DNA of 64,000 nucleotides. Source: an uncultured Gemmatimonadaceae bacterium (GTDB lineage Bacteria; Gemmatimonadota; Gemmatimonadetes; Gemmatimonadales; Gemmatimonadaceae). The notes below the pieces were generated by a model that searched no databases, was not told where the DNA came from, and saw only the letters and a program-made list of their open reading frames with translations. This document shows, one piece after another, positions 1,850 through 64,000 of this stretch. Where the stretch lies: positions 160,001 to 224,000 of the forward strand of contig CAWHHI010000017.1 in the NCBI GenBank assembly GCA_963829055.1, in the 5' to 3' direction. Made by a program: the position numbers and the translations under genes. Every line of letters starts with the position of its first letter. Positions within the stretch are counted from its first letter, which is position 1.

Positions 1850-2620
1850 ATGCACAGCCGCCTGATCCGGATTCTCGCCCTCGCCAGTCTCCTCGGCTGT
1901 CTCGGCGCCGATGCGCCCACCGAGACGAGTCTCCCGAGCCGCGAAGGGCGGCCCATCCTGTTCGTCGGGAACAGCCTGACGTACGTCAACGACCTGCCGT
2001 TCATCGTCGAGGCGCTCGCGGATTCGGTTCCAGGCCTAACGCCGGCCCAGCGACTCGCGCCCGCGATGACCGCGTACCCTGACTATGCGCTGCAGGATCA
2101 CTGGACCAACGGCGCCGCCGTGCGCGCCATCGACGACGGCAAGTGGGACATCGTGATCCTGCAGCAGGGATCCTCGGCCCTCGATGAGAGCCGCGTGCTC
2201 CTGCGCGAGTGGACGAAGAAGTTCGACGCGAAGATCAAAGCCGCCGGCGCGCGTACGGCCATGTACGCAGTCTGGCCACTCGCGACGCGCCAGTTCGACT
2301 TCGATCGGGTGAACGAGTCGTACACGCTCGCCGCCGCGGACGTGAACGGGATGCTGTTCCCGGTCGGCGAGGCCTGGCGTGCGGCGTGGCGGATCGACCC
2401 GAACCTGGCGCTCTATGCCGCCGACGGCCTGCATCCGAGCGTCCGCGGCTCGTACGTCGCGGGGCTCGTCATCACGTCGATGCTGCTCGACCGTTCGCCC
2501 GTCGGCATGCCCGCAAAATTGACGATCCGCACGGGCGCAACGATCACGATTCCCCCGGCCGAGGCCGCGACCCTCCAACGGGCCGCGGCGGAGGCGATCG
2601 AGAAGTTCGGAAAGCGTTAG
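1850..2620 (+). CDS. Secreted/lipoprotein SGNH-hydrolase-fold protein
   Basis: Signal with lipobox-like LLGC; block I ILFVGNSLT; C-terminal DGLHPS. Confidence 0.8.
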   Translation: MHSRLIRILALASLLGCLGADAPTETSLPSREGRPILFVGNSLTYVNDLPFIVEALADSVPGLTPAQRLAPAMTAYPDYALQDHWTNGAAVRAIDDGKWDIVILQQGSSALDESRVLLREWTKKFDAKIKAAGARTAMYAVWPLATRQFDFDRVNESYTLAAADVNGMLFPVGEAWRAAWRIDPNLALYAADGLHPSVRGSYVAGLVITSMLLDRSPVGMPAKLTIRTGATITIPPAEAATLQRAAAEAIEKFGKR

Positions 2621-2642
2621 GCGCCGAGTCGAGGAATCGTTG

Positions 2643-2782
2643 TGTCATTCCGAGCGGAGGCCGAAGGCCGCGGGTGCCCTCTGGGCGCATCGAGGACTCC
2701 TTGGCGTCGCGGTAGAAGCCCTCTGCCGCTGCAGGCCGAGGATTCTCGACTCCGCGCCTTCGGCGCTCCGCTCGGAATGACA
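2643..2782. repeat. REP-like palindromic element, family A (TGTCATTCCGAGCG...CGCTCGGAATGACA)
   Basis: Terminal inverted arms TGTCATTCCGAGCGGAG / CTCCGCTCGGAATGACA; related copies at 14.35, 17.5, 30.2, 40.3, 43.0 and 57.6-58.1 kb. Confidence 0.85.
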
Positions 2783-2985
2783 ACAGCTCACGCTCGCACT
2801 AGTAGATGTACACGCGCGTGCCGACGGGCATCATGTAGGAAAGCATTCACCGTGCCGCTGTTTCCGGGAGGAGCGATTGCCAGAATAGCGAGAAAATGGT
2901 TGAGTTTGGGAGCCGCCGGAATCGGTCATGCCGCCTAACGCAGCAGCGTCGCGCGGCCCCAACCCCAATCTGAAACGATGCGACA

Positions 2986-3019
2986 CGGCCTCGACATTTT
3001 CACCAAAATGTCGAGGCCG
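2986..3019. terminator. Perfect 15-bp inverted repeat, possible terminator or operator between convergent genes
   Basis: CGGCCTCGACATTTT-cacc-AAAATGTCGAGGCCG. Confidence 0.45.
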
Positions 3020-3060
3020 CCTAACGCGCCGTTCGGTCGGCAGAAATCAGCATCGGAAAG

Positions 3061-4296: not shown

Positions 4297-6324
4297 GGGA
4301 CGACCGGTCCTTCTTGGGATTCACGCGAATGACCCACAGCCCGTTGTTGAAATCGTTGACGTAGGCGAGGCCATCTTTCGGATTCACGACCACGCCCCAC
4401 TTGAACGCCGCGTTCTTCTGTTGCCGTTCATGTCCGCGGTGTTGAGCGATCGCGATCTCACGACCCTGCGACAGGAGATCGCCCTGCAGCTCGCCCGAGA
4501 TGTCGAACACGTGGAAACCGGCGTCGTACGCGCCGATGTAGAGCGTGTCCTGCACCGCCCACACGTTGTGCACGCCGCCCATCTCGGGCGTGTACCACGC
4601 GACCGACCTTCGGATGCTCGATGTCGCTCACGTCGATCGACCTGCAGCGTGCCGTACATCCGGCTCGCCGACGCGTCCTTCGCGCCTTCGACGGTGCCGT
4701 TGCGATAGACCTCGTCGGCGATGAAGACGTAGTTGCCCGCCGCGCTGACGCCACGCCGTGTGCGTGCCGCGCGTGAACCCGGTATTCGACACCGCTTCGA
4801 CTTCGCGATACAGCGAGTCGAGGTCGTACTTGCATCTGCGACACGATCACCGGCTTGTCGGGACGTCCGCCCTCACTTGCCGTTGCCGATGTCGAGGATC
4901 ACGAGGCCGTCGTTCCAGTAGCACGCGTACATCAGACCGTCGACGATGTCGAGGTCGTGAACATACCGCGCGGCATCGGGGCGGTCTCGTCTTGAAGCTC
5001 GTCGTACCTGCTTCGGCTTCGCGGGATCGGTGATGTCGATCGAGTGGATCGTGCCCGTGCCGTCGTTCGTGAGAAACACGAACTTGCCGAATTTCGGATT
5101 CTCGTAGATGTAGATCGAGTGCACGCCGCCGTGACGCCGTCGGTGAAGTCGGCGATCGCTTCGGGTGCAGCGGGTCGCGCGTGTCGGCGATGACGATGCC
5201 GTTCTTGCGGTCGGCCGCGCCCTCGCGCGTGAGCACCATGTAGTTGCCGTCGGCGGTCGTCTGCATGTCGTTCACGAGCCGCGTGTTCGACTGAATGGAG
5301 TCGACGATCATCGGATTCGCCGGGTGCGTGATGTCGATCGCGTAGACGCGATCGCCGCCGCCGTGCGTGCCGAGGTAGGCGACGTTCCCGTTCGGGTGAA
5401 TCCACACCTCCGACGTCGGAAACGCCGTCATCGGCAGCCGACCGACGACGCTGACCGATCGCCGAACGTCGCGCGCGCTCGAGGTGCACGACCGTGCTCG
5501 CCTGCTTGCCGCCGAGGTTGCGCGGTGACGAGGTAGTCGCCCGGCTCGTAGGCGACGAACGCGCCGTCCGGCTCGAGCTGGCCGTCACCGGGTGAGACGA
5601 TCCACGTCGGCGTGAGGCCCGCGATGTCTCGCCCGTTCGCGTCCTTCGCCGAGACGGCGAAGCGAATGACGTCGCCCTGTCGGGCGCGTGGCTTGACCGG
5701 CGAGATCGCGACCGACGTCAGCGTCGCCGGTAGCACCTCGATCGTCTTCATCGCCTTCACGCTCCCGGCCTGCGCGGTGAGCACGGCCTGGCCGGCCCCG
5801 ACTGCCGTCAGCATCCCATCGGCGTCGATGCGCGCGACGTTAGGCGCGGCACTGGCCCAGCGAATGGCCTCGCGCGAACGATCGTTCACCTTCGTGAACG
5901 CGAGGGCGGACATTTGCAGCTGCTGCCCCGCGACCATCTTCCGCACCGGGGTGCGGATCTCCACGCGCGAGGCGGGCCCCGGTACCATGCGAAACTCGAG
6001 CGGCTGCACTTTCGGGCGCGTGCCCGGCACGACCGCGACGACATTGATCGGCATCTTGCCGACCGAGCTCGCGATGAGCGTCCCGGTGGAGTCGATGGAT
6101 CCTTCGCCCTCTCCGCCGCGTGCGACGAAGCGGATGATGGCGTTATCGATCTTCCGGCCTGCCGCATCGAGTGCCTCGGCCGAGAACTTCACGGTGTCGC
6201 CGGCGACGACCTCGAACGTCGCTGGAGTGACGACGATGCGCGCGACGGGAGATTCGGGGATGGGAGGCGCGGGCTGCTGCGCCTGAAAGGACGCAACGAG
6301 CGCGAAGGGGAGGAGAAACGACAT
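4289..6324 (-). CDS. Secreted Ig-like (Big_2) plus LVIVD-repeat propeller protein, multiply frameshifted
   Basis: Signal MSFLLPFALVASFQA; Big_2-like IRWASAAPNVARIDADGMLTAVGAGQA; LVIVD-like YVHDLDIVDGLMYACYWNDGLVILDI and VHNVWAVQDTLYIGAYDAGFHVFDI in successive frames. Confidence 0.75.
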
Positions 6325-6882: not shown

Positions 6883-7727
6883 ATGACATCACCCATCGGG
6901 CGACGCGACTTTCTCTCCAGCCTTGGCGCCGGCATCGGCGCGATCGCAGTCTCGGGATCGAACCTCGTGAAAGTGTCGCCCCCGCAACCGATCGGCCTCC
7001 AGCTCTACACCGTCCGCGACCTCATGGACCGCGACGTCGAGTACACGCTGCGCCAGGTCGCGGACATCGGGTATCTCGAAGTGGAGTTCGCCGGGCTGTT
7101 CGGCAAGGATCCGCGGAAGGTGAGGAGCTGGCTCAAGAAGTACGGCCTGACATCGCCGTCGAGTCACATCGCGCTCGATCGACTCACGGCGAGCCTGTCG
7201 AGCGTCGTCGACGAAGTGCAGGCGTTAGGCAACGACTACGTGGTCGTCCCGTCGGTCGACGCCGCACTCACCCGCGATGCCGATGGGTGGCGCCGCGTCG
7301 CGGCAACGTTCAATCGCGTCGGCGAGTCGCTGCAGCGCGTCGGGATGCGCTTCGCGTACCACAACCACGACGCTGAATTCAAGCCGCTCCCGGGCGGTGA
7401 GATCCCCTACGATATTCTGCTCGCCGAGCACCGATCCGAGATTCGTGAAGTTCGAGATGGACCTGTACTGGATCACGAAGGGCGGCCACGATCCGCTCGC
7501 GTACTTCGCGAAGTGGCCAGGCCGATTTCCCATTCGTGCACGTGAAGGACATGGCGGGCAACGGCGGCATGACGAATGTCGGCCAGGGCCACATCGACTG
7601 GACGAAGATCTTCGCCAAACGCCGCGAGGCTGGCATCGAGCACTACCTCGTGGAGAACGACGATACGAAGTCGCCGATCGAAGACATCCGCGTGAGCTAC
7701 GCGTACATGTCGAGATTGGGACTATGA
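6883..7727 (+). CDS. TAT-exported sugar phosphate isomerase/epimerase (xylose-isomerase-like TIM barrel), frameshifted near 7430 and 7535
   Basis: GRRDFL twin-arginine motif; IGLQLYTVRD, YHNHDAEF, FEMDLYW, HVKDM, YLVEND. Confidence 0.85.
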
Positions 7728-8655
7728 CTGATCGGGAATCGGGGAATCGGGGAACGGGGAACCGGGCGCGAGCGCAATCGCGGCGCGAGTTCTCAGCAGC
7801 CGGGCGTCGCCGCCGCTGGGCGCGGTTGCCGTTTCGATTCCCGATTCCCGATTCCCCATTCCCGACGCGTTCCCCGTTCCCGGTTCCCGGTCCGCCGCTT
7901 GCCGACAGGCAGCGGCCCGTTGGTGCTACGAGAAAATCCCGATCCGTGAATTCGCGCAGGCCGCGAAGCGCATCGGACTCGCCGGTATCGACCTGCTGCA
8001 GCCCGCGGAGTGGGATGTCGTTCGCGATCAGGGGCTCGCGTGCTCGATGGGCTACCCGACCGACCGCCGCGACTTCCTCACCGTCGGGTTCAACGACCGC
8101 GCGAACCACGCGATGTTGCTGAAGGAGCTCGAGCGCACCATTCCGCTCGCGGCCGAACACAAGGTGCCTAACGTCATCGCGATGTTCGGCAATCGTGGCG
8201 GACGCACGGACGCGGCCGCGATCGCGGCCTCAGTCGAAGGGCTCTCGAAGATCAAGCCGCTGGCCGAGCAGCACTCGGTCACCGTGTGCGTCGAGCTCCT
8301 GAACAGCAAGGTCGACCACCGCGACTACCAGGGCGACCACACGGCCTTCGGCGTCGAGGTCATGAAGGGCGTCGCATCACCGCGCGTGAAGCTGCTCTAC
8401 GACATCTACCACATGCAGATCATGGAAGGCGACGTGATCCGCACGATCCGCGACAACATCGCCTACATCGGCCACTTCCACACCGGCGGCGTCCCGGGCC
8501 GTCACGAGCTCGATGGTCGCCAGGAGCTCAACTGGCGCGCGATCGCGATCGCCATCGCCGCGACGGACTATGCGGGCTTCGTCGCCCACGAGTTCATGCC
8601 CACCGGCGATCCGCTGACGTCGCTCAAGGCGGCGTATGAGGTGTTCGCGGTTTGA
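7724..8655 (+). CDS. TAT-exported hydroxypyruvate-isomerase-family TIM barrel, frameshifted in the 5' part
   Basis: ATGA overlap with the previous stop; SRREF; RWCYEK..GIDLL..CSMGY; VELLNSKVDH.DY..D, LLYDIYHMQIMEGD, HFHTGGVPGRHE. Confidence 0.85.
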
Positions 8656-9856: not shown

Positions 9857-11230
9857 TCAGAGCCGCATCGCTGCCGGCCCTGCGCCCGTCGTGAAGAACG
9901 TGGCACGCTGCGAGGGCTCTGGGAAGCGCCCCCGGTACCCCTCCTGCCAGCTTTCCGTGAACCGCTGCGCGTCGGCCTGCCCGACGAGCGCCCACACGCT
10001 GCCGCCGAACCCGGCACCGAACGCCGACGCCGCCACCGCGCCTAACGAGCGCGCCGACCGCGCGAGGTAGAACGTCTCCGGCACCTGGTTGCCGAGCAGC
10101 ACTTCCGCGCCCCGTTGCGAACGGTCGACCAGCTCGCCGAGTGCGGTCAGGTCGCCGCGCTCCAGTGCGTCGCCCGCCGCGGGAATGATCTCCCGACTCT
10201 CGGCGTCGAACTGATCGAGCCGGGTGATGAGATCCGTCACGTCGAATCCGTCGCCGGCGCCTTCGTTTCCGTTGACGTGCACGGCCGGGTCACGCACGAT
10301 GCGACGCAGCCGCGCGAGCGCATCGTCGGACGATGCGAGCACCGCCGCGAGCGTCGCTTCCTTGCCCCCGGTCGCCGCGCGCCAGCGATCGATCAGTGCG
10401 TGGACGCGTCGCGCCTGACGATTGTAGAGCGCCAGCGCCGCACCCGTCTTCTCCGCCAGCACGCCGCTCGCGCCAATGACGAACACATGGCTGGACGGCA
10501 GCGGCACGCTCCGCTCGAACCGAACCGGCGCGAACGAGTACTGCACGAGCGCATCGGCGCGCGAGCACAGAATCGCCGTGTGATCCTGACTGCCGCTGAA
10601 TGTGCCGACACCTCGATCGCCGTCCAGCGACCCGAACGGCGCGCCATTCTCCACCGCTCCGAGGTACCCGGCGAGGTGGTCGGCGTCGGGGATCTCGCGC
10701 CGATACTCCTCGTGCGCGCCTAACGCGTTGAGGTCGGAGATGGCGAGGAACGTCGCGATGACGAGCGCGCTCGAGCTGCTGAGCCCCGCGGCCGGCGGCA
10801 GGTCGCTCGCGAACGCGATGTCCGCGCCGCGCAGCGGTCCGGGAAAGTTGCGCGCGATACGACGCACGACCGTGATGGGGTAGTTCGTCCAGCTTCCCTC
10901 GGCGGGCGCGAGCGTCGCGCTCAGTTCCATCTCCACGTGGTCGCCGGTGACGGCGTCGGTCATCCGAACCATGCGATCGTCGCGGGCGGTCGCGACGACG
11001 GCAATCCCGCGCTCCACGGCGCAGATGAGGCTCCGTCCGCCGGCGTAGTCGGTATGCTTGCCGAGAAACTCGATGCGCCCCGGAACCCAGAGTCGCAGCG
11101 TCTGTCGCTTACCGAGGGCGGCTGCCGCTCGCGCGAACAATCGATTCTTTCGCCCGATCTCCGGCTCCGACATGCCGGCGAGCGCCAGGCGTTCGTCGAG
11201 AGCGTGTGCTGCTACGTCGCGCACATCCAT
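9857..11230 (-). CDS. galK: Galactokinase (GHMP kinase)
   Basis: PGRIEFLGKHTDY galactose-binding signature, LPPAAGLSSSSA, GAGFGGSV. Confidence 0.85.
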   Translation of the reverse strand: MDVRDVAAHALDERLALAGMSEPEIGRKNRLFARAAAALGKRQTLRLWVPGRIEFLGKHTDYAGGRSLICAVERGIAVVATARDDRMVRMTDAVTGDHVEMELSATLAPAEGSWTNYPITVVRRIARNFPGPLRGADIAFASDLPPAAGLSSSSALVIATFLAISDLNALGAHEEYRREIPDADHLAGYLGAVENGAPFGSLDGDRGVGTFSGSQDHTAILCSRADALVQYSFAPVRFERSVPLPSSHVFVIGASGVLAEKTGAALALYNRQARRVHALIDRWRAATGGKEATLAAVLASSDDALARLRRIVRDPAVHVNGNEGAGDGFDVTDLITRLDQFDAESREIIPAAGDALERGDLTALGELVDRSQRGAEVLLGNQVPETFYLARSARSLGAVAASAFGAGFGGSVWALVGQADAQRFTESWQEGYRGRFPEPSQRATFFTTGAGPAAMRL

Positions 11231-17671: not shown

Positions 17672-17676
17672 TGCGC

Positions 17677-21124: not shown

Positions 21125-21146
21125 TGGTCTGTCGTTAGGCCGACGC

Positions 21147-30156: not shown

Positions 30157-30166
30157 GCAGGACTAC

Positions 30167-37008: not shown

Positions 37009-37068
37009 CGCAAGCAGCGTCGGCCAGCGAGCCGCGGATGGGCCCGCGGATGAGCGCACGGACGTGCG

Positions 37069-42579: not shown

Positions 42580-42597
42580 CGCCTCAGCGCCAACAGC

Positions 42598-43189: not shown

Positions 43190-43298
43190 CCAAGCCGGCG
43201 GATACGGGGCCTGATGCCTGACACCTGCTGCTGAGCAGTCGCTGACGCACTTGGTACTGGCCAGGCCGCCGCCGAATGGCGTAGCGGTTCCAGACCGC

Positions 43299-49485: not shown

Positions 49486-49679
49486 GCGCGAGAGGTGGAA
49501 TGATGCGGCCCGCTTGCGCCCTGGTGGTATGTGAAAGGCTTGTACCCCGTGCTATCTATCTACCGGACTATCTGCGTAGCGACCGGAGCGGGCACCGTCA
49601 CCGCCATGGTCGAAACAGATCACATCACTCGTCGCGGCCGCCCTGCGGCGACGATCACCGGACTGACGGAGGACATCGC

Positions 49680-51166: not shown

Positions 51167-53726
51167 TCAGTGCAGCGTCAGCAGCCGCCGGAACTCGGCG
51201 TCGTTCCGGAGCGACGCGAACTCCGCGTACTCGCGAATCGCCGGGACCATGAAACGACCGCCTTCGTCCAACGCCGCAGTCAGGAGCGTCAGCGCCTGAG
51301 CACGTCGGCCTAACGACGCAGCAATCCGCGCGCGGTACAGTGTGCGCGTGAACGTGTACGGCGTGCGCGACGTGGCGAGCCAGTGATCGGCGACGTCCAC
51401 GTCCGTGCTGTCGTCGCACGTTGCCGCGACCAGGCCAGCGTAGCCGCGCAGGTCCACGTTTGCGCTGTCACTCACCGCGAGATCCGCGAAGGCAGCCTGC
51501 GCGTCACCGTGACGACCGAGCTCGTAGAGAACCTGCGCGCGCTCCAACGGCAATGAGCGGTCTCCCGCCCGCCCCGCCATCGCGTCGAGAGCTCCGAGCG
51601 CCCGCGTTAGGGTTCGACGACCAGCCGCTGTGTCGCCGCGAGCGATGAGCGCGGCGGACACACGACGGAGGCCGCTCGCGACCGTGGACGAAGGCGCGAG
51701 CGGGCGCACGAGCATCGTGTCGACGAGATGCTCCGCCTGTTCTGGATGACCATCGCGCGCGAGGAGCGTCGCCTCGAGCACCCACGCGCGCGCGTAGCTC
51801 GGGGAGCGCGCTCGCGACCATCGCGCGACGTCGATGCCGTGCGATGCGTCGCCAGTCGCCGAGAGGACCTGCGCGTACACGAGCGCGAAGTTCGGCCCGA
51901 CCTCCGCCACGCCCTGCTCCAGCCGATGGCGGCCGAGGAGCTCCTTCGCCTCCATGAAGCGCCCGAGCTGCATGGCCTGAAGCGCGAGCGAGTACTCGAG
52001 AAACGCGGAACGCGGACGCAGGTCCGCGACGGCGCGGGCCTCGTCGTATGCGCGTTGCCAATCGCCGCGACACTGCGCGACCTGACCGTCGAGCACGTGG
52101 TGTTCGTATGGCGCGAGTCTCGTTACGCACGGCATCGAGCTCGGCGGCGATGGCCTCCGTGCGTTGGCATTCTCCGACCAGACGATGCAGGATGGCCGCC
52201 TCGACGCGGGCGGCGTAGAACGTCGAATCAAGCGCGGTCGCGCGGAGAAAGTGCCGTAACGCCCCGCGTCGATCGCTGCCCCAGATGCTTTGCCCCGTCA
52301 CGAACTCACGATACGCCTCGTAGCTCGGCGGCTTGGACGCGACGCGAACCCACGAGCTGAGTCGCGGGTCCACCAGCGATGCGAGACCACCTACCGTGCG
52401 CTGTCGCACCGCTTCGAGCGGCTGTGACGCGTCGCTCACGGTGCCTCCTTCGGCGTCGAAGGCGTCGAGGACTTCACCGCGCGCGACGTCGCTGATCTTG
52501 ACGTGAAATCGCAGGTGATCGCCGACGTTGTAGTACGCACCCGTGACGAGTGTGCCAGCGCCAAGATTCGCGGCGCGACGAGCATCGGCGTTCGCATCCG
52601 ACGACGCCTCTGGTGCACGAGGCGCGGGCTCCACGGCCTCGGCGCGACGTGCCGAGGCGACCGCGACGACGCCAGTGCGCTCGAGCCCCTCGGCGACCCA
52701 GTCGCTCGCCATCCCACCGACCTGATCGAGCGCGCGATCGCCGGTGCGGTTCTCGAACCACGCGACGTACACGCGCTTCGTGTCCAGCGGCTCGTCGTGT
52801 CGACGAGAGATTTCCACGCCTGCGAGGATGGCAGCCAGCGATGCGGCCGCCGCGGTCCCCCACGCGAATCTCCGCGCCCTCCGCCCGCGCGCATGGGGCG
52901 CTGCCACGTTAGGCGCCGTGATCGGCGTGGCGGTTGGCACCGTGATCGGCACGTCTGGCAGCGCCGGTGCCGGCGCGGGCACGGCTATCGTAGCCGAGCT
53001 GCGCGGCGCTTCATCGCGCGGGGCTGCAACGCGCAGCGCTTCGACGAACGCGATGAACGCCCGGTCGGGCTCTGCCTCGAGGTGCTCGCGAACGAGAGCC
53101 TCGTGAACGCGCGCCGCCTGTAGCGCACCAACGCTGTCTCCATCCGCGACAAGCGCCTGCACGAGCTCCAGCGCGACACGCGAGCTGAACGGGTCGCTCG
53201 ACGCGAGGCGGCGCCACCACTGCGCGGCCTCGTGTGCGCTCCCCTGACGCGCCGCATCACGGGCCAGCGACTCGACCGCGTCCGCATGGAGAATTCCAAG
53301 GCGCACGCGCTCGGCGTCGATAGTCTGCTGCAAGTCCGGCGAGCCGCGAAGGTGGATGCCGTCGAGATACGGGCCATCGTAGAGCGCGGCGACGGTCGAG
53401 AGCTCACCGCGACGATGCGCGGCCTCGAGCTCCCAGGCATCACACAGCACCACGTCCGCGTTCAGCCGCAGCACCGTCGTTCCCGTCACGACGCTGGCCG
53501 AGTCCGCGTCGCGGCGCAGCGCGTAGAGCGACTGACCGAGCGAGTGGCGGGCCTTTTCTTCGGGACTGTCGGGCCAGAGCAACGCGGCGGCTCGGTCCCG
53601 CGAGACGCCGCGCGGCCCCGCCGTCACGAGCAGCGCCAGCAGCGCCACGCGCTGCGATGGGATCTCGCGCGGGACGCCGTCGGACCGAACGGCGCACCAG
53701 CCGCCTAACGTCTTGAGTCGCAACAT
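51167..53726 (-). CDS. SARP/BTAD transcriptional activator with TM segment, TolB-N-like and TPR regions, frameshift near 52125
   Basis: LKTLGG, SRDRAAALLWPD, LYDGPYLDG, DPFSSR; VAWFENRTGD; C-terminal FASLRNDAEFRRL. Confidence 0.82.
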
Positions 53727-54732: not shown

Positions 54733-54806
54733 CCGTTAGGCAGCGGAGTCCGGTGGCCGAGCCGGCCGCCGCTTTGCGGCGGCCGCGGCAGCACGTACAA
54801 TGCAGT

Positions 54807-55778
54807 ATGACCAAGCATCAGGTCCCGCAGGTGGATCGAACCGCCCGCGCGGCCGCGAGCACGCATCTCATCATCCCGACGGGAACGCAGGTCGTCTCAC
54901 GCGTCGAGGTGCGTGCCGCGTCCGGCGCGGTGGTGTGCCCGCTGGGCGCCGCGGGTGTCGTGGTGCGCGCCCCCGACGACGCGACGCACGCGTACCGCGT
55001 TAGGCTGCCGGACGGCACCGAGGTCTCGCTCCGGCGGCAGGAGATCTCCATCCGCAAGCACGTGCAGCAGGAAGATCTCGACGCCGTCGGCGAGGTGCTC
55101 GCCGATCACGATCTCTACGAGTTCGTCATCTACCGCTGCGTCCTCGGCTCGCACGCATACGGGCTCGCGCACGAGCAGTCCGATACCGACCGGCGTGGCA
55201 TCTACCTCCCGCCGGCAGAGCTCCACTGGTCATTGTACGGCGTGCCCGAGCAGCTCGAAGACAAGAAGACGGACGAGGTGTACTGGGAGATCCGGAAATT
55301 CGTGTCGCTGGCGCTCAAGTCCAATCCGAACATCCTCGAGTGCCTGTACACGCCGATCGTCGAGATCGCGACGCCGCTCGCGCAGGAGCTGCTCGAGATG
55401 CGCACGATGTTCCTCTCGAAGCTGATCTATCAGACGTACAACGGCTACGTGCTCAGCCAGTTCAAGCGGCTCGAGCAGGATCTGCGCACGACCGGGACGC
55501 TCAAGTGGAAGCACGCGATGCACCTCATCCGCCTGCTGATCGCGGGCGTGACGGCGTTGCGCGAAGGCTACGTGCCGGTGCGCGTCGACGCCCATCGCGA
55601 TCGACTACTGGCGATCAAGCGCGGCGAGGTCGAGTGGCCCGAGGTGGACGCATGGCGGCTCGCGCTGCACAAGGAGTTCGATCACGCGCTCGAGACCACT
55701 GCGCTCCCCGACAGGCCTGACTACGAGCGTGCGAATGCATTTCTCATCAGAGCTCGTCGCGCGATGGTCAATCCATGA
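54807..55778 (+). CDS. Pol-beta-superfamily nucleotidyltransferase (RlaP/YcgL-like) with an extra N-terminal beta domain
   Basis: GSHAYGL..SDTDRRG, SNPNILECL, WKHAMHLIRLL, LPDRPD; ATG 54807 lies within ORF 54279-55778. Confidence 0.88.
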   Translation: MTKHQVPQVDRTARAAASTHLIIPTGTQVVSRVEVRAASGAVVCPLGAAGVVVRAPDDATHAYRVRLPDGTEVSLRRQEISIRKHVQQEDLDAVGEVLADHDLYEFVIYRCVLGSHAYGLAHEQSDTDRRGIYLPPAELHWSLYGVPEQLEDKKTDEVYWEIRKFVSLALKSNPNILECLYTPIVEIATPLAQELLEMRTMFLSKLIYQTYNGYVLSQFKRLEQDLRTTGTLKWKHAMHLIRLLIAGVTALREGYVPVRVDAHRDRLLAIKRGEVEWPEVDAWRLALHKEFDHALETTALPDRPDYERANAFLIRARRAMVNP

Positions 55779-56734: not shown

Positions 56735-57559
56735 ATGCCCACGCTGACCGTCGCCGGCGGAGCCGGACCGATTCACGTTGTCGATCTTCACGAAGAGAGC
56801 CCGACGCCTTCGGGCGAGTTGCCGATCGTGTTCGTCCACGGCATGGTGGGCCACACCGGCTTCTGGAAAGCAGCGCTGGCGGCCTGTGCTGACCGGCGCC
56901 GCGCCATAGCGATCGACCTGCGAGGCCACGGGAATTCGAAGCCCCCGAGTGACGGCGACTACTCCGTGGAAGGGTGTGCGACGGACGTCCTCGCCGTCTT
57001 CGACGCGCTCGGCCTCGAGTCGGTGGTGCTCGTCGGTCACAGCTACGGCGCGCACGTGGTGATCGAAGCAGCCGCGCGGCAGCCATCCCGCGTTAGGCGT
57101 CTGATCCTCGTGGACCCGCCCGGCGACTTCACCACGTGGTCCGCTCAGATGCGCGAAGAGCAGATCGTTCCCTACCTCGCCTCCATGGACGGGGACAATT
57201 GGCGCGCCGTGGTCGAATCCGACTTCGACGACGCGCTCGTGGGCGGCACAAGCGCGACGGCCGCTGCGATACACGCGAGACTGGCCACGATGCCACACGA
57301 CGCGATGCGGTCGATGGCGCGCGGCATGATGAACTTCGGCGCGAAGGCGGCGCTGGAGCGCTACCTGGCCCATCCGGGCAGCTCGGTGCACGCGATCCTC
57401 GCGCCGCCTAACGCCTGGCCGTTCAGCCTCCACCTCCTCGTGCCGGCGATCACGACAACGGTCGTCCCCGACGTCGGCCACTGGATCATGCTCGACGCGC
57501 CCGAGCGATTCATACAGGCGTTGGAGGAGGCTATTCAGGTCGGAGGAAGGAGGCCGTAG
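56735..57559 (+). CDS. Alpha/beta fold hydrolase
   Basis: VFVHG, DLRGHG, GHSYG, GHWI. Confidence 0.9.
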   Translation: MPTLTVAGGAGPIHVVDLHEESPTPSGELPIVFVHGMVGHTGFWKAALAACADRRRAIAIDLRGHGNSKPPSDGDYSVEGCATDVLAVFDALGLESVVLVGHSYGAHVVIEAAARQPSRVRRLILVDPPGDFTTWSAQMREEQIVPYLASMDGDNWRAVVESDFDDALVGGTSATAAAIHARLATMPHDAMRSMARGMMNFGAKAALERYLAHPGSSVHAILAPPNAWPFSLHLLVPAITTTVVPDVGHWIMLDAPERFIQALEEAIQVGGRRP

Positions 57560-58065: not shown

Positions 58066-61000
58066 CTATGGCCTCCGTCCTCCTTCCTCCGGTGGCGCCA
58101 TATACACGAGCGACGGATCAAACGCCCACAACGCCACGCCCACCGTCGGCAGCATCGACTCGAACGTCATGTCGACCGCGCGATTCTTTCCCATCCCGCT
58201 GTGACTCTCGCGCAGATCCGTCACGAGATCACTCAACGAGTGGCCGCGCGCGAACGACTCGGCGATCATTCGCGTGATGCGCGCATGCTGGTCCGGCTCA
58301 CCGAGACCCACGCCTACCACCGCCACCGCCGTTCCCTGACGGAACAGATCGGCCGCGAAGCCGTTGCGCAGCAGCATCTGCAGCATCGCCTGCGTACGGC
58401 CGTGGCCGCGCGACGGGTCGAGCACCACGATCGGGCGATCCGGCCAGCGCGTCTGGCCCAGCGCCCGTGTCACGCCGCTTGGCGTCAGTGCGTCGCCGCG
58501 CACAGACGCGTTGTCACTCGAACCGGCAGCGCGCGCGTCCAGCACGATTCCGCCGAGCGACGCCGACTCGCGCAGCGGGGCGCGCACGTGAATGACCTCG
58601 GGGTGAAAGCTCCCGCACAGCTCGCGCAGCTCCGCCACCGCTACGCCCTCGCGCACCATCGTGTCGAACCCTGCCTCCTCGTAGGCGCGCGCGACGCGGT
58701 CCGCGGCTGCTTCATCCTCGCCGCCAATCGAGCGCGCGAGCTCCGGCGCCGGCGCGATCACGAGCGCGCGAAGCCGCTGGTCGCCGCGGTGCAACCGCCG
58801 CAGCCGATCGAACAGGAGGGCCGACGTCGGACCATCCGCGATCCCGCTTGGCGTTAGGCCCACGGACTTCTGGAATGCGGACACCGCCCCGCGGGTCTGC
58901 GGCCCCTCGATCCCGTCGGCAAAGATGCGCGTGCCGCCGATCGTCGAGAGCGCCCGCTGCACCCACGTCACGTGCGTACGGCGCGCGTCGGTCACGCGGA
59001 CGCTCCGATAGAGCGTGCCGACACGCGGATCCAACGCCAGGAACCCGGGCTCCTCACCACGATCCGGAAAGCATTCCAAAGGCAGCGTATCGAGCAGCGG
59101 CGAGTCGACCTCGAGGCGCACGTCCACCGGTGGCGCTGACGTATTGCCGCCCAGCGTCGTCTCCCATAACTCGCGCGTGCCCAGCAACGTGCCGAGGTCG
59201 CGGATCGCTCCGAACCACTCATCGGCGAGCAAGCGCGACACCTGGTACGGCACCGCCTGCGACCTCGCCGCTTCGAGATCGCTGCGCAGGTGATCGAGCG
59301 CCGGGTTGTGCGCGGTGCTCGTATCGAATGCGACCGTGCCGTGTTCGTCGTCGCCAGCCGGAACCTCGCAGCGCACGTTCGTGCCGTCCGCCATGAGCCG
59401 TACCGAGATCGGCGGCCGTTCGTCGCGAACGGTCAGCTCGACCGTCGACGGGCCACGCTGTTCACGCAGACGTTCGGCGGCATGCTGCTGACCTAACGCG
59501 TCGTACCGGGAGATCGCCTCGGCGAGGAAGTGCTGGCGATCGTCAGCGGTGGCGGCGAACTGCGCGCGAAGATCATCGCACTGCGCCGACCAGAAGCTCG
59601 GCAGCTCGCCACGCGGAGACAGAAGGGGCGCCGCCGCCTCGGCCATCATGCGGGATTCCTCGCGCTTCCCTTCGCGAGCCAGATGTGCTGCCTCGCGAGA
59701 CGCGACGATTCCGGCGAGCGTGCGGTACTCGCCGGGATTCGCGATGAGCGCACTCACCGCCGCGCGTGATTGTCGCTGCGTCTCCGGCACGCCCATCTCA
59801 CACTCGAGCGAGTGCGCCAACGCGACAAGGGGTGCCGACGCACTCATCAGCGCGGCCGCCGACACGCTCGCCAGCCACTGCAGCGCGTCCGCTTCGAGGC
59901 CGAGCGCGAACGCGACGCGCGCCCGATCGAGCCGGGACCACGGTGACAGCGACCTGGCTGGCCCCAATACGGCATCGAACGTCACGCCGATGCGTTCCGC
60001 GACACTGCGGCCGACCTCGCCGATAGACGAGAGCGGAGCGAAGTCCGGAATCGCGCGCGAGATGCACAGCCGCGCCGCACCCGGCGGGGAGATACGCTCG
60101 ACCGCGTTCGTCAGCAGCGTCGCGTAGCCCGCGGCATCCCTGGCCGCGGTGCCAGCCGAAGCAGCGTTAGGCTCGCTGCCGCTTCGGTCTTCCGATAGCG
60201 CCGCGATCGCGACGCCCACGTCGACGCGGGGAGTCCGCGCGGCGCCGGGCGGACAGGACGTTCGCAGCCGGTTCGCGGCATCGACCGGTCGGCCGCGGGC
60301 GTCGTCGAGCCGCACCGCGGCCACTCGCAGCGCCGTCCAGGCATCGCCGCGCGGAGGAAGCGTTATGCGCTCAGCCTCGTTCAGGTGCTGTTCGGCCATC
60401 TTGAGATCGCCAACGCGATAGATCAACAGCAACACTTTGCGGTGAAGGTCGGCCGCGCTCTGCTCGACGCGCTTGATGCGTTGCGCCCAGATCTGCCGCG
60501 ACGTTTCCAGCTCGTCGAGCGCTGCGCCGTGGCGTCCCATCGTCGCCAGCACGGCTCCCCGCGCGCTCCGCGCCGTGCCCTCGGCCACGATCGCCAGCAT
60601 CTCGAATCCGGGGCGCGCCAGCTGCAGTGTGCCCAGCTGAGTCGCCGTCGCGAGCGCCGCGTCCACCATTCCGAGCGCCTCGGCCACTTCCCCGCGCGCC
60701 AGCATCGCGCGCGCTTCCAGCACCTCGATCTCGGCACGTGCGCCGAGCCATCCAGCGCGTTCCTCGGCGGGCGCAGTGGCGGGTAGCGCTGCCAGCGCCG
60801 CCTGACATTCGCCGCGCGCATTCCTCACGGCGCCAAGTGCCTGACGCGGCTCGTCGCTGCCGAGCCAGGCTTCCGCGAGCCGCGCCGTCGCGTAACAGCG
60901 TTCCATGGAGCCGCGCGGCATGCGCCCACGCACGAGCAGCAGCTGTTCGGCAGCCAGGTCGTACCGGTCGTGCAGCATGCAATGCGCGGCCAGTAACTGC

Positions 61001-63678
61001 CGCAATTCCAGCAGCTGTCGCGGCGCAACATCCGTGTCCACCTCGGCGAGCTTCACCGCTTCGGTGAGGTGGTCGATCGCCGCTGGCTCCTCGCGCGTCG
61101 CGAAGACGCCCCCGAGCGCGATCGCCAGCTGCAGGCGGTCCGCCGGTGACGTCATCGAGGGACGGATGCGCTCGAGTCGCCGGAGCGCGTCGTCGGCCCT
61201 GCCGTATCGCGCGTCGATCTGCGCGCGCAGTACGTCGAGCGTGCCGCGATTCACGTGCGCGCCCTCACCGCGGCGGACGAGTGCCTCGAGATCCTCGAGC
61301 GCGCGCTCGCCCTCCGCCCACCAGTCGACGTCACCGCTGCCGCCACTCGACGCGCCGAGCTGGATCGCGGCGCGCGCCTTCGCGATCAGCGCGTCGCACA
61401 GCAGCGCCGGCGCAATGATCGGCGTGCCATCGTCCCGGAGAATTGGACGGCGATCGTCGTCGAGGTACTCGGGCTGCGTGGGCTCGGTAGCCACCTCGAA
61501 CGCGAGGCGCACATCGGTCTTCGTCATGGCGCGACGGAGCGAGCGGCGCCACGCACGCTCCGCTTCCGGACCGCCGAGCTGGAAGCGGTGGAACAGCATC
61601 GCGCGCGTGGCGCGTACCCAGCGCTCGTTGTCGACTCGTTCGACGGCCCGTGCGACACTCGCGTAGTACGTCGCCGCGCGCTGTTGCAGGCGGCGGAACA
61701 CCGGCTGGCGCTGCAGCTCGCGACGCATCGGGCGCACCGCGTCTTCGTGGAAGACGACGGTATCGCGGTCGGCGTCCGCGCGTACGAACGACAGGGTGCT
61801 CGCGTAGCCCTCGAGGCGAGACCAGAGGTCATCCACTTCCAGCGCGACGGCGCCCGCACTCGCCTCGCCAGGCGCGACGTAGTAGGGATGCAATCCAGTG
61901 GCGTCGAGACGTGGATCGTCTCGCTGCGACGTGCCACCTAACGCCGCGTGGAGCTCCGGCAGCAGCACATCGCGCAGGAAGCTCTTCGTCAGCTGACGCG
62001 GCACCACGCCGTAGCGCAGGAGCCAGCATAACGCCTGGTCCGATGCTTCGATCCGGCGCAGTACGCGATTGACGAGATACTCGAGCTCCGGATTCGGCGA
62101 TGCCCGCACCTGCTCGGCCGTCATCTCGCCCCCGATCTGCCATTCGTCGGCATACAGGGAGAGCGCGAACGGCAGCCCGCGCGAGCACTCCGCCATGGCG
62201 CGCACCGCGTCGCCGTCGGGGAGGCCACGAATGTCCACGAGATAGCGCACGCTCTCGTCGGGCTCGAAGCGCTGGATCCGGACGGACCGCGTGACATCGC
62301 CGAACTCGGTGCCGAATCCCTTCAGCTTCGTATCGTCCCGCAGATCGAATCGGCCGGCGAGGACCAACCGCAGATTCGGGTACGCGTCGTGGACGCTCGA
62401 CAGACACGCGATGACCGACATCAGGTTCGTGGTGCGCCGGCGGATGACATCCTCGAGCGTGTCGAGCACGACGACGACTGCACCGCCGACGGTATCCCGC
62501 AGCGTATCCGCGAAGTCTTCGGTGACCTGTCGCGCCAGGCGCTGCTCGCCGGTGACGTCGAGAATCTCTCCCGTGTGCTGCGCGCGTCCCTCGACGACCA
62601 GGTCTCGCGCGATGGACACGTACTCATCGTACCGCTCGATGAACCCGGAGAGCGGACGGCCGGCGATCTGCGCGTTGAGCTGCTCGGCGAGGCGGACCAA
62701 CAGCAGCCATGGCGCTTCGGGGAGTACCGTCGGATCCGTGAAGTCGAAGTCGATGCGCGCGTACGGCACGCGATTCGGTACGCACTTCCGCGCGGCAAGC
62801 CACTGCAGGAAGATCGTCTTCCCCATCCCGCCCTGCGCGGTGAGGTCGATGATCCACTCGCGGTCCACGGTGTTCACCGACGCGGCCGACGTCGTGTTGA
62901 TCCCTTGAATGCGGGCCCATTCGTCGCGCATGAACTGCCGTTCGAGCGCATGCGCGCTCTTCGCCAGATCGCCCGCGAACGCACAGCGCGCCTCGTAGTA
63001 CTGCTGCAACGAGTCGTGCATCTCGACCAGCCGCGTGATGGCCAGGCGACGGTCCGCCGCCTGGCCGCGCTGATCACGATGGCGCAACAGCAGCGCGCGC
63101 TGCCCGCCGATGATCTGCAGCACGCGGTAGCAGCGCGCCACGTTGAACTCGGCGTCCGCCTCGCGATACAGCTCGTTCAGCCGCTCGGCGGCTGCCGCCG
63201 GATCAGCCAGGGCGAGCTGGTAGAGGTGCTCGATGCGCCAACCGACGCGAACCGCCTTCCCCGGCGGCGCGAGGTAGTCTACGATCGCGCGACTCAGGGC
63301 GACGCCGTCGAGGACGTCCGAATACGCAGGTGCTTTGTCGTTAGGCGCGAACCATCGCTCCAACCGGGCCGCGCGCGCATCGGCGCGCATGCGGTACACG
63401 GGCTCGCTGCCACCAACGCGCTCGATATCGTTGTGCGCAGTGAGCCACGCGATGTCGGCGTCCGCGTCGGGCGTCGCGTCGCCAGCCGACGGCAGCTGGG
63501 CCAGCAGGACCGTGCGGGCCATCCCCTCATCGAAGATCACCGGAATCGCCGCGCGTCGCAGCAGCATGTGGCGCCGCTCCGGCACGAGCGTCTCGGCCAC
63601 CTCGCGCAGGCTGCCGAGATGATCGGCTTTCGCGAGGAGCGCGCGGAGCGCGGTGAGCGATTCCTGGCTGGTCGCCAC
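58066..63678 (-). CDS. 1870-aa STAND-class P-loop NTPase with TPR-like repeats and a C-terminal degenerate CHAT domain containing a peptidoglycan-binding insert
   Basis: Walker A AQGGMGKT, Walker B VVVVLDTLE, LRLVLAGR, RGLPFAL (GxP); long helical repeats; LDTLPLE, LRALVIAP, VIHVRAP, IVVLDPS; VQRAL..DGIEGPQTRGAVSAFQKSVGLTPSGIADGPT. Confidence 0.85.
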   Translation of the reverse strand: MATSQESLTALRALLAKADHLGSLREVAETLVPERRHMLLRRAAIPVIFDEGMARTVLLAQLPSAGDATPDADADIAWLTAHNDIERVGGSEPVYRMRADARAARLERWFAPNDKAPAYSDVLDGVALSRAIVDYLAPPGKAVRVGWRIEHLYQLALADPAAAAERLNELYREADAEFNVARCYRVLQIIGGQRALLLRHRDQRGQAADRRLAITRLVEMHDSLQQYYEARCAFAGDLAKSAHALERQFMRDEWARIQGINTTSAASVNTVDREWIIDLTAQGGMGKTIFLQWLAARKCVPNRVPYARIDFDFTDPTVLPEAPWLLLVRLAEQLNAQIAGRPLSGFIERYDEYVSIARDLVVEGRAQHTGEILDVTGEQRLARQVTEDFADTLRDTVGGAVVVVLDTLEDVIRRRTTNLMSVIACLSSVHDAYPNLRLVLAGRFDLRDDTKLKGFGTEFGDVTRSVRIQRFEPDESVRYLVDIRGLPDGDAVRAMAECSRGLPFALSLYADEWQIGGEMTAEQVRASPNPELEYLVNRVLRRIEASDQALCWLLRYGVVPRQLTKSFLRDVLLPELHAALGGTSQRDDPRLDATGLHPYYVAPGEASAGAVALEVDDLWSRLEGYASTLSFVRADADRDTVVFHEDAVRPMRRELQRQPVFRRLQQRAATYYASVARAVERVDNERWVRATRAMLFHRFQLGGPEAERAWRRSLRRAMTKTDVRLAFEVATEPTQPEYLDDDRRPILRDDGTPIIAPALLCDALIAKARAAIQLGASSGGSGDVDWWAEGERALEDLEALVRRGEGAHVNRGTLDVLRAQIDARYGRADDALRRLERIRPSMTSPADRLQLAIALGGVFATREEPAAIDHLTEAVKLAEVDTDVAPRQLLELRQLLAAHCMLHDRYDLAAEQLLLVRGRMPRGSMERCYATARLAEAWLGSDEPRQALGAVRNARGECQAALAALPATAPAEERAGWLGARAEIEVLEARAMLARGEVAEALGMVDAALATATQLGTLQLARPGFEMLAIVAEGTARSARGAVLATMGRHGAALDELETSRQIWAQRIKRVEQSAADLHRKVLLLIYRVGDLKMAEQHLNEAERITLPPRGDAWTALRVAAVRLDDARGRPVDAANRLRTSCPPGAARTPRVDVGVAIAALSEDRSGSEPNAASAGTAARDAAGYATLLTNAVERISPPGAARLCISRAIPDFAPLSSIGEVGRSVAERIGVTFDAVLGPARSLSPWSRLDRARVAFALGLEADALQWLASVSAAALMSASAPLVALAHSLECEMGVPETQRQSRAAVSALIANPGEYRTLAGIVASREAAHLAREGKREESRMMAEAAAPLLSPRGELPSFWSAQCDDLRAQFAATADDRQHFLAEAISRYDALGQQHAAERLREQRGPSTVELTVRDERPPISVRLMADGTNVRCEVPAGDDEHGTVAFDTSTAHNPALDHLRSDLEAARSQAVPYQVSRLLADEWFGAIRDLGTLLGTRELWETTLGGNTSAPPVDVRLEVDSPLLDTLPLECFPDRGEEPGFLALDPRVGTLYRSVRVTDARRTHVTWVQRALSTIGGTRIFADGIEGPQTRGAVSAFQKSVGLTPSGIADGPTSALLFDRLRRLHRGDQRLRALVIAPAPELARSIGGEDEAAADRVARAYEEAGFDTMVREGVAVAELRELCGSFHPEVIHVRAPLRESASLGGIVLDARAAGSSDNASVRGDALTPSGVTRALGQTRWPDRPIVVLDPSRGHGRTQAMLQMLLRNGFAADLFRQGTAVAVVGVGLGEPDQHARITRMIAESFARGHSLSDLVTDLRESHSGMGKNRAVDMTFESMLPTVGVALWAFDPSLVYMAPPEEGGRRP

Positions 63679-63681
63679 GAC

Positions 63682-64000
63682 CTATTTCACCTGCCCCATG
63701 AACGTGACCATGGCGTCCAGCTCGTCGCGACCCCAGCGCGCATCGGGCGACGCGTTGCGCAGCTTCTGGCTCTTCCACTCGATGAGCGGCTCGGCCAGCG
63801 CGCGGTCGAGTCCGCGGTCCACCGTGAACTCGCGGGCCAGGAGCTCCCAGTCGGCCGGCACGAACCACTGCAGCTCGCAGTCGGTGCCTAACGCCGCAAG
63901 GTCCGACAGGCCGAGCGCCTTGAGCTGCGACGCGCCGGCAGTGAGAATGAGCCGGACGTTCTTGATGTCGCCGTTCGCGATCGGGTCGATCAGCTCGCGA
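63682..64000 (-). CDS. 3' end of an upstream gene, STAND-NTPase-like C-terminal portion (partial)
   Basis: Manual translation (not in ORF track): RELIDPIANGDIKNVRLILTAGASQLKALGLSDLAALGTDCELQWFVPADWELLAREF...FMGQVK*; stop TAG 63682-63684, 3 nt before the next GTG. Confidence 0.7.
   Translation of the reverse strand, partial: RELIDPIANGDIKNVRLILTAGASQLKALGLSDLAALGTDCELQWFVPADWELLAREFTVDRGLDRALAEPLIEWKSQKLRNASPDARWGRDELDAMVTFMGQVK

Follow-up and report, generated by a model that had tools for sequence, protein, structure and literature searches.

Tagging of a genome's own DNA with a hyper-abundant word is known from few bacterial groups, and in most of these cases the reader or the purpose of the word is disputed. 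The uptake signal sequences (USS) of the Pasteurellaceae are short and non-palindromic, occur about once per 1 to 1.5 kb on both strands, lie mostly in genes at a cost to coding, tolerate graded change at some positions, and are spaced more evenly than chance; they are also conserved above background, missing from foreign-looking DNA, and limited to certain lineages. HIP1 (GCGATCGC) is a hyper-abundant octamer of cyanobacteria that occurs about once per kb across reading frames, is patchy among relatives, and has no settled function. Chi (read by RecBCD or AddAB) and the FtsK-orienting polar sequences (KOPS) are asymmetric octamers read by translocating enzymes; both are polarized with replication and enriched only a few-fold, and Chi marks self DNA. 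For the DNA uptake sequences (DUS) of the Neisseriaceae, passages of Treangen et al. 2008 (PMC2397512) describe core-genome enrichment, absence from recent acquisitions, and a spacing tied to conversion tracts. Here, we report a candidate tag, as strong as those of Haemophilus or Neisseria, in an uncultured-rich soil phylum, the Gemmatimonadota. The tag is the octamer GCCTAACG (reverse complement CGTTAGGC; referred to here as the word), and the window in which it was noticed is a 64,000-base stretch, positions C17:160001-224000 of the Gemmatimonadaceae assembly G000 (7,784,024 bases, 20 contigs, completeness 85.86%).

The G000 genome holds 5,004 copies of the word versus 102 expected under a second-order Markov model, a 49-fold enrichment. 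In a ranking of all 8-mers, the word is by far the most enriched, and it shares the top of the list with the 8-mers that overlap it. Copies are present on 20 of 20 contigs, at one per 1,222 to 2,064 bases depending on the contig; the excess that an earlier note had read from the window alone is thus genome-wide and not confined to one contig. Within the window, an exact recount returns the 51 copies that the note had located by hand, 26 as GCCTAACG and 25 as CGTTAGGC on the + strand, whereas 100 dinucleotide-preserving shuffles average 1.10 copies and never exceed 4. Its estimate of about nine further copies that differ at one edge base is also exact (7 changed at position 1 and 2 at position 8), while its figure of about 69% for the G+C content was too high (66.9% measured). 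We tentatively read the word as a DNA-level tag kept by biased transmission (molecular drive), as DNA uptake sequences are, with a putative protein as its reader.

Beyond the eight letters, the copies share nothing, and they are for this reason not a repeat element: of the 5,004 contexts of 48 bases, 4,998 are distinct, and the information at any flank position is at most 0.13 bit. A repeat of the repetitive extragenic palindrome (REP) or miniature inverted-repeat transposable element (MITE) type was ruled out on the same grounds and by the 3,167 copies that lie inside called genes. As the earlier note had proposed, the word is non-palindromic, strand-balanced (2,457 forward and 2,547 reverse copies), and without replichore polarity. 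Orientation correlates with GC skew at r = -0.19 over 137 bins of 50 kb, with 840 forward and 900 reverse copies in positive-skew bins and 1,332 of each in negative-skew bins. Spacing is more even than exponential, with 213 gaps shorter than 200 bp versus 610 expected and an excess of gaps at 500 to 2,000 bp. Close inverted pairs show no excess genome-wide in G000, and the clusters that do exist (20 pairs within 40 bp and 27 triples within 400 bp) mark no regulatory locus. The force that maintains the word is indifferent to strand, frame, and replication direction, and it favors one copy per stretch of about 0.5 to 2 kb rather than clusters.

Most copies are written into protein-coding sequence. 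Genes of G000 were called by a simple, conservative GC3 rule (6,014 genes, 72.6% of the genome), which places 3,167 copies inside genes, 350 across a gene end, and 1,487 outside. One frame per orientation is closed by the stop codon of the word itself (GCC TAA CG and CGT TAG GC); the four open frames are all used, with xCG TTA GGC at 1,219 copies, xxG CCT AAC G at 883, xGC CTA ACG at 595, and xxC GTT AGG C at 470. The word accounts for 1,222 of 2,751 TTA codons (44%), 599 of 3,990 CTA codons, 197 of 758 TAA stops (26%), and 172 of 1,589 TAG stops, which bears out the claim of the earlier note that copies in different frames force rare codons; the three codon examples that it gave (xCG TTA GGC at 7223, xxC GTT AGG C at 29289, and xxG CCT AAC G at 26113) are correct. 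Peptide contexts that are compatible with the word are spelled as the word in 11 to 56% of cases. The dipeptide Pro-Asn is over-represented 1.39-fold in G000; therefore, proteins too have been bent. Coding sequences hold 3,182 copies versus 148 after synonymous-codon shuffling within genes and 64.5 (37.9 + 26.6) after codon-order shuffling. The force thus overrides codon preference and even shifts protein sequence. Taken together with the unconserved flanks, these features are best explained by an isolated 8-bp recognition word that acts on DNA and not on RNA or protein, an explanation that we hold as tentatively as the reading of which it is part.

By our own gene calls, 30 of the 51 window copies lie in genes, 7 give a stop codon, and 14 fall outside the conservative calls. 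They are listed below by window coordinates and strand; codon strings give the reading of the word in the frame of the gene, and relatives are those of the same genus.

2034..2041, +, word copy in gene 1850-2620(+), xGC CTA ACG
2615..2622, -, word copy giving the TAG stop of gene 1850-2620(+)
2933..2940, +, word copy outside gene calls
3019..3026, +, word copy outside gene calls
5838..5845, -, word copy in gene 5428-6360(-), xxG CCT AAC G
7223..7230, -, word copy in gene 6397-7545(+), xCG TTA GGC (rare TTA)
8166..8173, +, word copy in gene 8047-8655(+), xxG CCT AAC G
10040..10047, +, word copy in gene 9857-11239(-), xCG TTA GGC
10718..10725, +, word copy in gene 9857-11239(-), xCG TTA GGC
12789..12796, +, word copy in gene 12538-14817(-), xxC GTT AGG C
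13698..13705, +, word copy in gene 12538-14817(-), xxC GTT AGG C
14302..14309, -, word copy in gene 12538-14817(-), xGC CTA ACG
16422..16429, +, word copy outside gene calls
17675..17682, +, word copy giving the TAG stop of gene 17677-19053(-)
19304..19311, +, word copy outside gene calls
21133..21140, -, word copy outside gene calls
22158..22165, -, word copy outside gene calls
22248..22255, -, word copy outside gene calls
24301..24308, +, word copy in gene 23612-24568(-), xxC GTT AGG C; not retained in G001, G002, and G005
25459..25466, +, word copy outside gene calls
26113..26120, +, word copy in gene 25628-27322(+), xxG CCT AAC G; kept in 3 of 5 relatives
29289..29296, -, word copy in gene 28876-30156(+), xxC GTT AGG C; relatives have CGTCAGGC or other sequence
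29778..29785, +, word copy in gene 28876-30156(+), xxG CCT AAC G; kept in 3 of 5 relatives
30151..30158, -, word copy giving the TAG stop of gene 28876-30156(+)
30789..30796, +, word copy in gene 30357-31562(-), xCG TTA GGC; kept in 5 of 5 relatives
32623..32630, +, word copy outside gene calls
35236..35243, +, word copy in gene 34784-36013(+), xxG CCT AAC G; kept in 1 of 4 relatives
36175..36182, -, word copy outside gene calls
37067..37074, -, word copy giving the TAA stop of gene 37069-38052(-)
37705..37712, -, word copy in gene 37069-38052(-), xGC CTA ACG
38486..38493, -, word copy outside gene calls
39052..39059, -, word copy outside gene calls
41499..41506, +, word copy in gene 41140-42579(+), xxG CCT AAC G; relatives have ACCTAACG and others
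42574..42581, +, word copy giving the TAA stop of gene 41140-42579(+)
42884..42891, -, word copy outside gene calls
43297..43304, +, word copy giving the TAG stop of gene 43299-44702(-)
44145..44152, +, word copy in gene 43299-44702(-), xCG TTA GGC
45460..45467, -, word copy in gene 45029-46084(-), xxG CCT AAC G
46110..46117, -, word copy in gene 46081-46386(-), xxG CCT AAC G
49480..49487, -, word copy giving the TAG stop of gene 47893-49485(+)
51308..51315, +, word copy in gene 51167-52231(-), xCG TTA GGC
52907..52914, -, word copy in gene 52503-53123(+), xxC GTT AGG C
53703..53710, +, word copy outside gene calls
54734..54741, -, word copy in gene 54279-55778(+), xxC GTT AGG C
54998..55005, -, word copy in gene 54279-55778(+), xxC GTT AGG C
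57091..57098, -, word copy in gene 56657-57559(+), xxC GTT AGG C
57406..57413, +, word copy in gene 56657-57559(+), xxG CCT AAC G
58852..58859, -, word copy in gene 58066-63678(-), xGC CTA ACG
60165..60172, -, word copy in gene 58066-63678(-), xxG CCT AAC G
63339..63346, -, word copy in gene 58066-63678(-), xxG CCT AAC G
63886..63893, +, word copy in a (-) gene extending beyond the window end, xCG TTA GGC

One account of such a word would be a by-product of composition, of codon or dicodon usage, of a repeat family, or of assembly or polishing. A dicodon Markov model, the kind of null that the earlier note had proposed, does reproduce 980 of the 1,222 xCG TTA GGC copies and to that extent "explains" them; however, such a null comes close to circularity, as the dicodons in question are products of the word, which contains 44% of all TTA codons. 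Both codon shuffles fall far short of the observed count, the flanks are unconserved, and close relatives of similar G+C content hold fewer copies than their count of a reversed control word. Nor does the word stem from one assembly. All seven genomes of the G000 genus carry it, and positions 24001-34000 of the window were found in 20 public sequencing runs of 16 studies (rhizosphere, soil, and sediment), with contigs of four runs, each from a different study, covering word positions with few differences. None of 40 listed differences falls inside a word, a result that is uninformative on polymorphism, as only 64 of the 10,000 bases are word bases and 293 further differences are unlisted. These controls refute the by-product or artefact reading, to which we give virtually no weight.

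Distribution among relatives is patchy. In a set of 41 genomes, 7 of 7 from the genus of G000 hold 2,501 to 5,112 copies, G014 from another genus holds 6,360 in 5.1 Mb, and six genomes (G010, G019, G020, G036, G038, and G040) are moderately enriched; the remaining genomes have far fewer copies, nearly all of them below the count of the reversed control word. Across a phylum sample of 301 genomes, 12 exceed 400 copies with a count at least double that of the control; all 12 are in two families of one order of Gemmatimonadota, and none of 102 genomes from other families (f4-f12) is enriched. These tallies take in the unpublished genomes G013, G084, G202, and G123, none of which is enriched. A single genus can span both states: G239 and G296 hold 3,896 and 4,141 copies versus 66 in G292, which is the sharpest natural contrast for finding the reader. 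Fourteen non-enriched relatives were sampled at 80 kb apiece, except for G009 (60 kb) and G007 (11 kb, too short to judge), and no comparable 8-mer was found in them; the word itself is the top 8-mer in the samples of G014 (90 copies in 80 kb) and G010. As non-enriched relatives lack a comparable 8-mer and enriched lineages share the same word, there are no dialects. A sample of G022:C5 (L061-L064) contains words around ACTAGTCA and ACTAGTGA 14 to 18 times in 80 kb versus 0.2 to 0.4 expected, which points to a different repeat or word there.

Aligned positions reveal how the word is maintained. Within the genus, 22 of 33 words of relatives are kept in G000 versus 17% of all aligned 8-mers, although the loci in this count overlap and the counts are not independent; between genera (G014 versus G000), 3 of 52 words are kept versus 9% of aligned 8-mers. 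The alternative states are mostly one step away from the word (e.g., GCCTGACG and GCCGAACG). Word density is thus maintained while positions turn over, and the force on DNA is directional, strong, sated by about one copy per kilobase or two, and active only in some lineages. This pattern bears on a further explanation, in which the word is a chromosome-architecture signal (like KOPS or architecture-imparting sequences) or a nucleoid-protein site, selected site by site. Even spacing and whole-genome spread would fit such a role. However, with no GC-skew polarity and so few positions kept between genera, with per-site selection having to beat codon bias thousands of times, and with copies in phage virion genes (see below) that it does not predict, we regard this explanation as very improbable.

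In the reading that we tentatively place first, a directional force would hold the word at about one per 1.5 kb along the chromosomes of this genus of Gemmatimonadaceae and of some lineages related to it. A sequence-specific protein would favor word-carrying DNA when homologous DNA is acquired or recombined, and word-carrying alleles would then be transmitted more often; a drive of this sort has been proposed to account for the uptake sequences of Pasteurellaceae and Neisseriaceae. Within the genus of G000, sites do outlast average sequence, and between genera their positions turn over. This mechanism is placed first because the anatomy of the word is closest to that of DNA uptake sequences. 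Like USS, and like DUS as described in passages of PMC2397512, the word is short and non-palindromic, occurs at about one per 1 to 1.5 kb on both strands, and is mostly genic with a coding cost; it also shares with both their graded tolerance at some positions, a spacing more even than chance, conservation above background, absence from foreign-looking DNA, and limitation to certain lineages.

Counts of single-letter variants in G000 indicate which positions are tolerant: position 1 ranks G>A>C (5,004, 827, and 428 copies), position 3 accepts A after C (583), position 8 accepts A after G (435), and the remaining positions are strict. Such graded tolerance is typical of a binding site. The earlier note had offered an uptake-like, a protein-binding, or a modification-driven signal; the statistics of the word resemble those of DNA uptake sequences, as the first of these would have it, and the last gained no support. 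If a methyltransferase marked the site and very-short-patch-like repair converted near-cognates to it, as might be supposed for a HIP1-type word, the force would likewise be DNA-level and act on both strands, and HIP1 too is an octamer written at about one per kb across frames and patchy among relatives. Yet HIP1 is a palindrome linked to methyltransferases and the word is asymmetric, and it would be unusual for a methyltransferase to have an asymmetric site with all 8 bp specified. Moreover, the Vsr family was found in 4 of the 41 genomes and in no enriched one. No single-mismatch neighbor in G000 is specially depleted (0.2 to 0.8 of expectation, like other TA-containing words), and GCCTGACG is even 2.1-fold enriched. 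We consider a HIP1-type origin improbable.

The spelling of the word provides a different lead. The earlier note knew of no description of it, and our literature search likewise found no account of the octamer as a genome word (the string occurrences examined, a part of the total, were primers or unrelated) and no paper that joins both 7-mers with "integron". The spelling is nevertheless that of an integron attC core. The non-enriched genomes G027 and G025 have cassette arrays adjoining intI, seen as runs of the word on a single strand with a copy about every 550 bp; in cassette orientation, each unit ends in a hairpin site G[C/T]CTAAC-A ... C-GTTAGGC. A covariance model built from 34 native attC sites found 60 sites in these arrays. 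The R' arm plus the preceding base is CGTTAGGC in 46 of the 60, a figure that leans high because the training sites of the model had been picked for carrying the word; the R'' arm together with the next base is GCCTAACA in 44. The cassettes contain no solo words (24 of 24 copies in L035 lie in attC sites), and the attC spelling is for this reason not derived from word-rich genomes. GCCTAAC fits the attC consensus, given in passages of PMC5027507 as 5'-RYYYAAC-3' / 5'-GTTRRRY-3', where the A-C step of AAC is the point of exchange; the same passages describe the R box as the strand-exchange site, conserved for micro-homology. According to excerpts of a preprint (bioRxiv 10.1101/2022.09.11.507474), IntI1 also uses double-stranded genomic attG sites for cassette insertion, with GWT at the cleavage point as the minimal requirement; the word contains a fitting GTT, but this triplet is found at about 1 position in 30 of any genome. 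The spelling of the word is thus probably not free, being the R' core arm of the native attC sites of the order. This identity would point to a reader that is either tuned to cassette DNA or specific in the manner of an integron recombinase. As natural transformation is known to feed cassettes to chromosomal integrons (PMC12614218) and IntI can use double-stranded genomic sites, it is not far-fetched, though an inference, to connect DNA acquisition with the integron core.

Large cassette arrays in genomes without the genome-wide word were seen at G027:C95:1-24000 (L035, L036), G027:C80, G027:C43, and G025:C3, with near-identical attC sites of 90 to 136 nt and at least 27 sites in 24 kb. At G027:C80, intI lies upstream of the cassettes and co-oriented with them, and it is fragmented. 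An Rfam scan of the cassette arrays and of the G000 intI locus matched tRNA only.

The genomic copies themselves were tried as attC sites and rejected: a covariance-model search of the window gave 0 sites at E<=0.01 while recovering the control arrays, and the copies have neither a partner arm nor an excess of inverted pairs. Unlike attC sites, which are hairpins of 55 to 140 nt with paired R''/R' and L''/L' boxes, the copies are single arms with no hairpin partner and no L box, lie inside conserved genes in four frames, and occur in numbers that do not follow intI presence. A strict R''...R' scan of G000 returned a handful of matches, and a whole-genome search with the attC model returned one weak match with 150 of 7,379 candidates scored, a result of little weight. 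G000 does have an integron at C20:208007-208985, where a few weak attC-like sites ending in the word stand beside intI. This gene looks degenerate; in its product, the GKGxKDR lysines and the first histidine are gone and 5 residues are deleted. In the surrounding C20:197000-209200 (L042), intI is co-oriented with the few cassettes of this chromosomal integron; from 197 to 209.1 kb, 12 of 13 word copies are on one strand, almost all to the left of the integron. A second intI, at C4:2849-3281, is cut after its N-terminal domain; it was considered as a stand-alone binding protein and rejected as a broken gene with a truncated IntI N-terminal open reading frame (ORF).

These observations bear on an alternative in which the copies are dispersed integron-type core sites: IntI or a related tyrosine recombinase would read the word as a double-stranded half-site (attI- or attG-like), chromosome and phages alike would be dotted with favored strand-exchange points, and exchange there would spread the word. 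The word matches the dominant R' arm plus its preceding base at 8 of 8 letters and contains the AAC/GTT exchange triplet, and one spelling occurs in every enriched lineage. In addition, GCCTAACA, the R'' form, is the second-best position-8 variant in the genome (14.8-fold enriched in G000), G000 has attC-like sites ending in the word beside intI, and both the attG activity of IntI1 and the micro-homology constraint on the R box, in the passages cited above, would suit the alternative. On the other hand, IntI presence does not follow enrichment, the G000 intI looks degenerate, the copies are without a partner arm, and tolerance is narrower than RYYYAAC, as T is not tolerated at positions 2 and 3 while A at position 3 is. 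Furthermore, cassette insertion into genes should select against such sites, and we know of no mechanism by which a recombinase writes its site into genes. We consider this alternative unlikely but worth keeping.

Foreign-looking DNA and phage DNA provide further evidence. At contig ends of G000 are three word-free segments of 31 to 50 kb, C6:5440-55037, C11:1-46789, and C6:591808-623330, with G+C contents of 69.9%, 66.3%, and 72.8%, respectively. Their genes are of the housekeeping type, among them a second DAHP synthase and a second FtsK that shares 47% identity with the copy on C16; part of one segment recurs at the end of C2 with 98% identity. These segments are probably foreign DNA or chimeric joins in the metagenome-assembled genome (MAG); in practice, the word could be used to flag such stretches in other MAGs. 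Neither of two terminase families searched for, PF03354 and PF03237, had a match in G000, which leaves no prophage to serve as a probe.

Viral contigs were instead found by two scans for two copies of the word at set spacing, a design that favors word-rich contigs. Besides cassette arrays and pairs that arose by chance, the scans brought up some contigs rich in solo copies, in which the excess is far beyond the bias of the search. L205 (scaffold, portal, and terminase) carries 31 copies in 17 kb, on both strands, versus 0.41 by shuffles, about three times the host density and with no attC match; L283 (virion proteins) carries 12 in 7.8 kb versus 0.21 by shuffles; and L254 (large terminase and major head protein) carries 7 in 13.6 kb. 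At least three phage contigs thus have solo copies at 0.5 to 1.8 per kb. A 44-kb contig that is labeled viral but has few phage-family matches (L266/L149, IMGVR_UViG_3300019458_000055) carries 18 copies within the 20 kb examined, with 16 sharing one strand.

Within the right arm of L205, 18 of 23 copies are on the coding strand, and the 16 one-strand copies of L266/L149 are opposite to its mostly co-oriented genes; the word may be orientation-biased in phages, though not in the host. A portal-protein search for relatives of L205 matched only the contig itself. Four further contigs of 30 to 52% G+C, L142 and L165 (IMGVR_UViG_3300023212_000464 and _000371), L255, and L186, carry the octamer on one strand. 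Folding rejected these runs as cassette arrays, which makes them uninformative on attC, and the octamer there lies within longer intergenic motifs: CCGTTAGGCGAT following AT-rich leaders in L142 and L165, a G+C hairpin and then CCGTTAGGCGG in L255, and 108-bp tandem repeats in L186. These motifs may be phage regulatory signals.

Phage copies bring forward another explanation, in which the word is a Chi-like self marker: a translocating nuclease or defense system of patchy, mobile distribution would be tamed by the word, and phages would mimic it. Resident DNA would need the word every 1 to 2 kb in both directions, in keeping with the even spacing and equal orientations, and the patchiness within a genus (G239 and G296 versus G292), the use of the same word wherever enrichment occurs, and the word-free state of foreign-looking segments agree with this, as does the saturation of phage structural and packaging modules with solo copies, in one case at about three times the host density. 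That last point is tempered by the choice of phage contigs through a search requiring two copies. Like Chi and KOPS, the word is an asymmetric octamer; unlike the known Chi words, it has no replichore polarity, and its 49-fold enrichment is far above that of Chi in E. coli. Known Chi-reading enzymes do not track it either. RecC was found in 1 of the 41 genomes, and AddAB-type PDDEXK_1 nuclease pairs were found in 15, many of them non-enriched, with no relation to enrichment; such pairs were not found in the enriched G014, G010, G001, G002, and G005. The identity with the attC core is also left unexplained. We judge a Chi-like marker possible but doubtful.

Several observations weigh against biased transmission as the explanation, above all in its plain uptake form. 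The phage solo copies, at densities equal to or above those of the hosts, are not predicted by an uptake drive. Unlike DUS and USS, the word has no dialects among relatives, has no inverted pairs at terminators, occurs identically in separate lineages and in phage virion genes, and is spelled as an integron attC core. The lack of dialects, the attC identity, and the phage copies pull away from a plain uptake signal, and because of them the Chi-like and recombinase-core explanations are kept alive. Genes for a reader are no clearer a guide. IntI is above cut-off in 24 of the 41 genomes, including many without enrichment, and the search did not find it in four enriched ones, G002, G004, G010, and G020 (79 to 93% complete). 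ComEC occurs in 40 of 41 genomes, as does a PilQ-like secretin whose best score, 275 bits, is below the curated 284. DUS have a co-distributed receptor, the minor pilin ComP; G000 carries three type IV pilins, and the one that was tested, a non-PilA pilin, is closest to orthologues from genomes of either state, enriched and non-enriched (G004 at 84% and G021 at 78%), and does not track enrichment. ComEC, the secretin, and this pilin do not explain the patchy distribution; competence machinery is encoded but, being present in non-enriched genomes too, is permissive only. In all, none of the seven candidates (IntI, ComEC, the PilQ-like secretin, RecC, the AddAB-type nuclease, Vsr, and one pilin) follows enrichment.

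A broader proposal, which we put forward as a doubtful possibility, is that the word common to chromosomes, phages, and the integron core is the signal of an undescribed, horizontally mobile system, with a recombinase-derived reader or a word-tamed nuclease, that decides which DNA is accepted, kept, or exchanged in soil Gemmatimonadota. If this were true, integron cassettes would carry the pass-word by construction. A causal link to the integron would tie a genome-wide sequence drive to the cassette-exchange machinery, and phage mimicry would point to a self/non-self system of a new kind. Near kin with or without the word, be they genera or even species of one genus, offer clean contrasts for finding the reader.

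The other content of the window is ordinary. Its genes include a LysR regulator, a sugar kinase, a symporter, a short-chain dehydrogenase/reductase (SDR), a threonine dehydratase, a major facilitator superfamily (MFS) pump, and a histidine kinase, and an Rfam scan of the window matched no family. A radical-SAM protein of the window has its closest relatives, at 85 to 87% identity, in Gemmatimonadaceae or Gemmatimonas MAGs, and the word occurs at 0.3 to 0.7 per kb in the flanks of these relatives. At 58066-63678(-), a 1,870-residue ORF has no NCBIfam match at E<=1e-10. In the four metagenome runs, summed contig depth rises 10- to 50-fold at 30013-30346 and 33353-33686 of the window, and many loose contig ends fall at 30264-30269 and 33630-33650; these stretches look like intergenic repeats present in many copies or many organisms. 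Lastly, about 100 to 150 bases at approximately 43040-43200 of the window match dozens of places on both strands in G003 and G004, and a few in G001, G002, and G005, and look like a palindromic MITE-like repeat.

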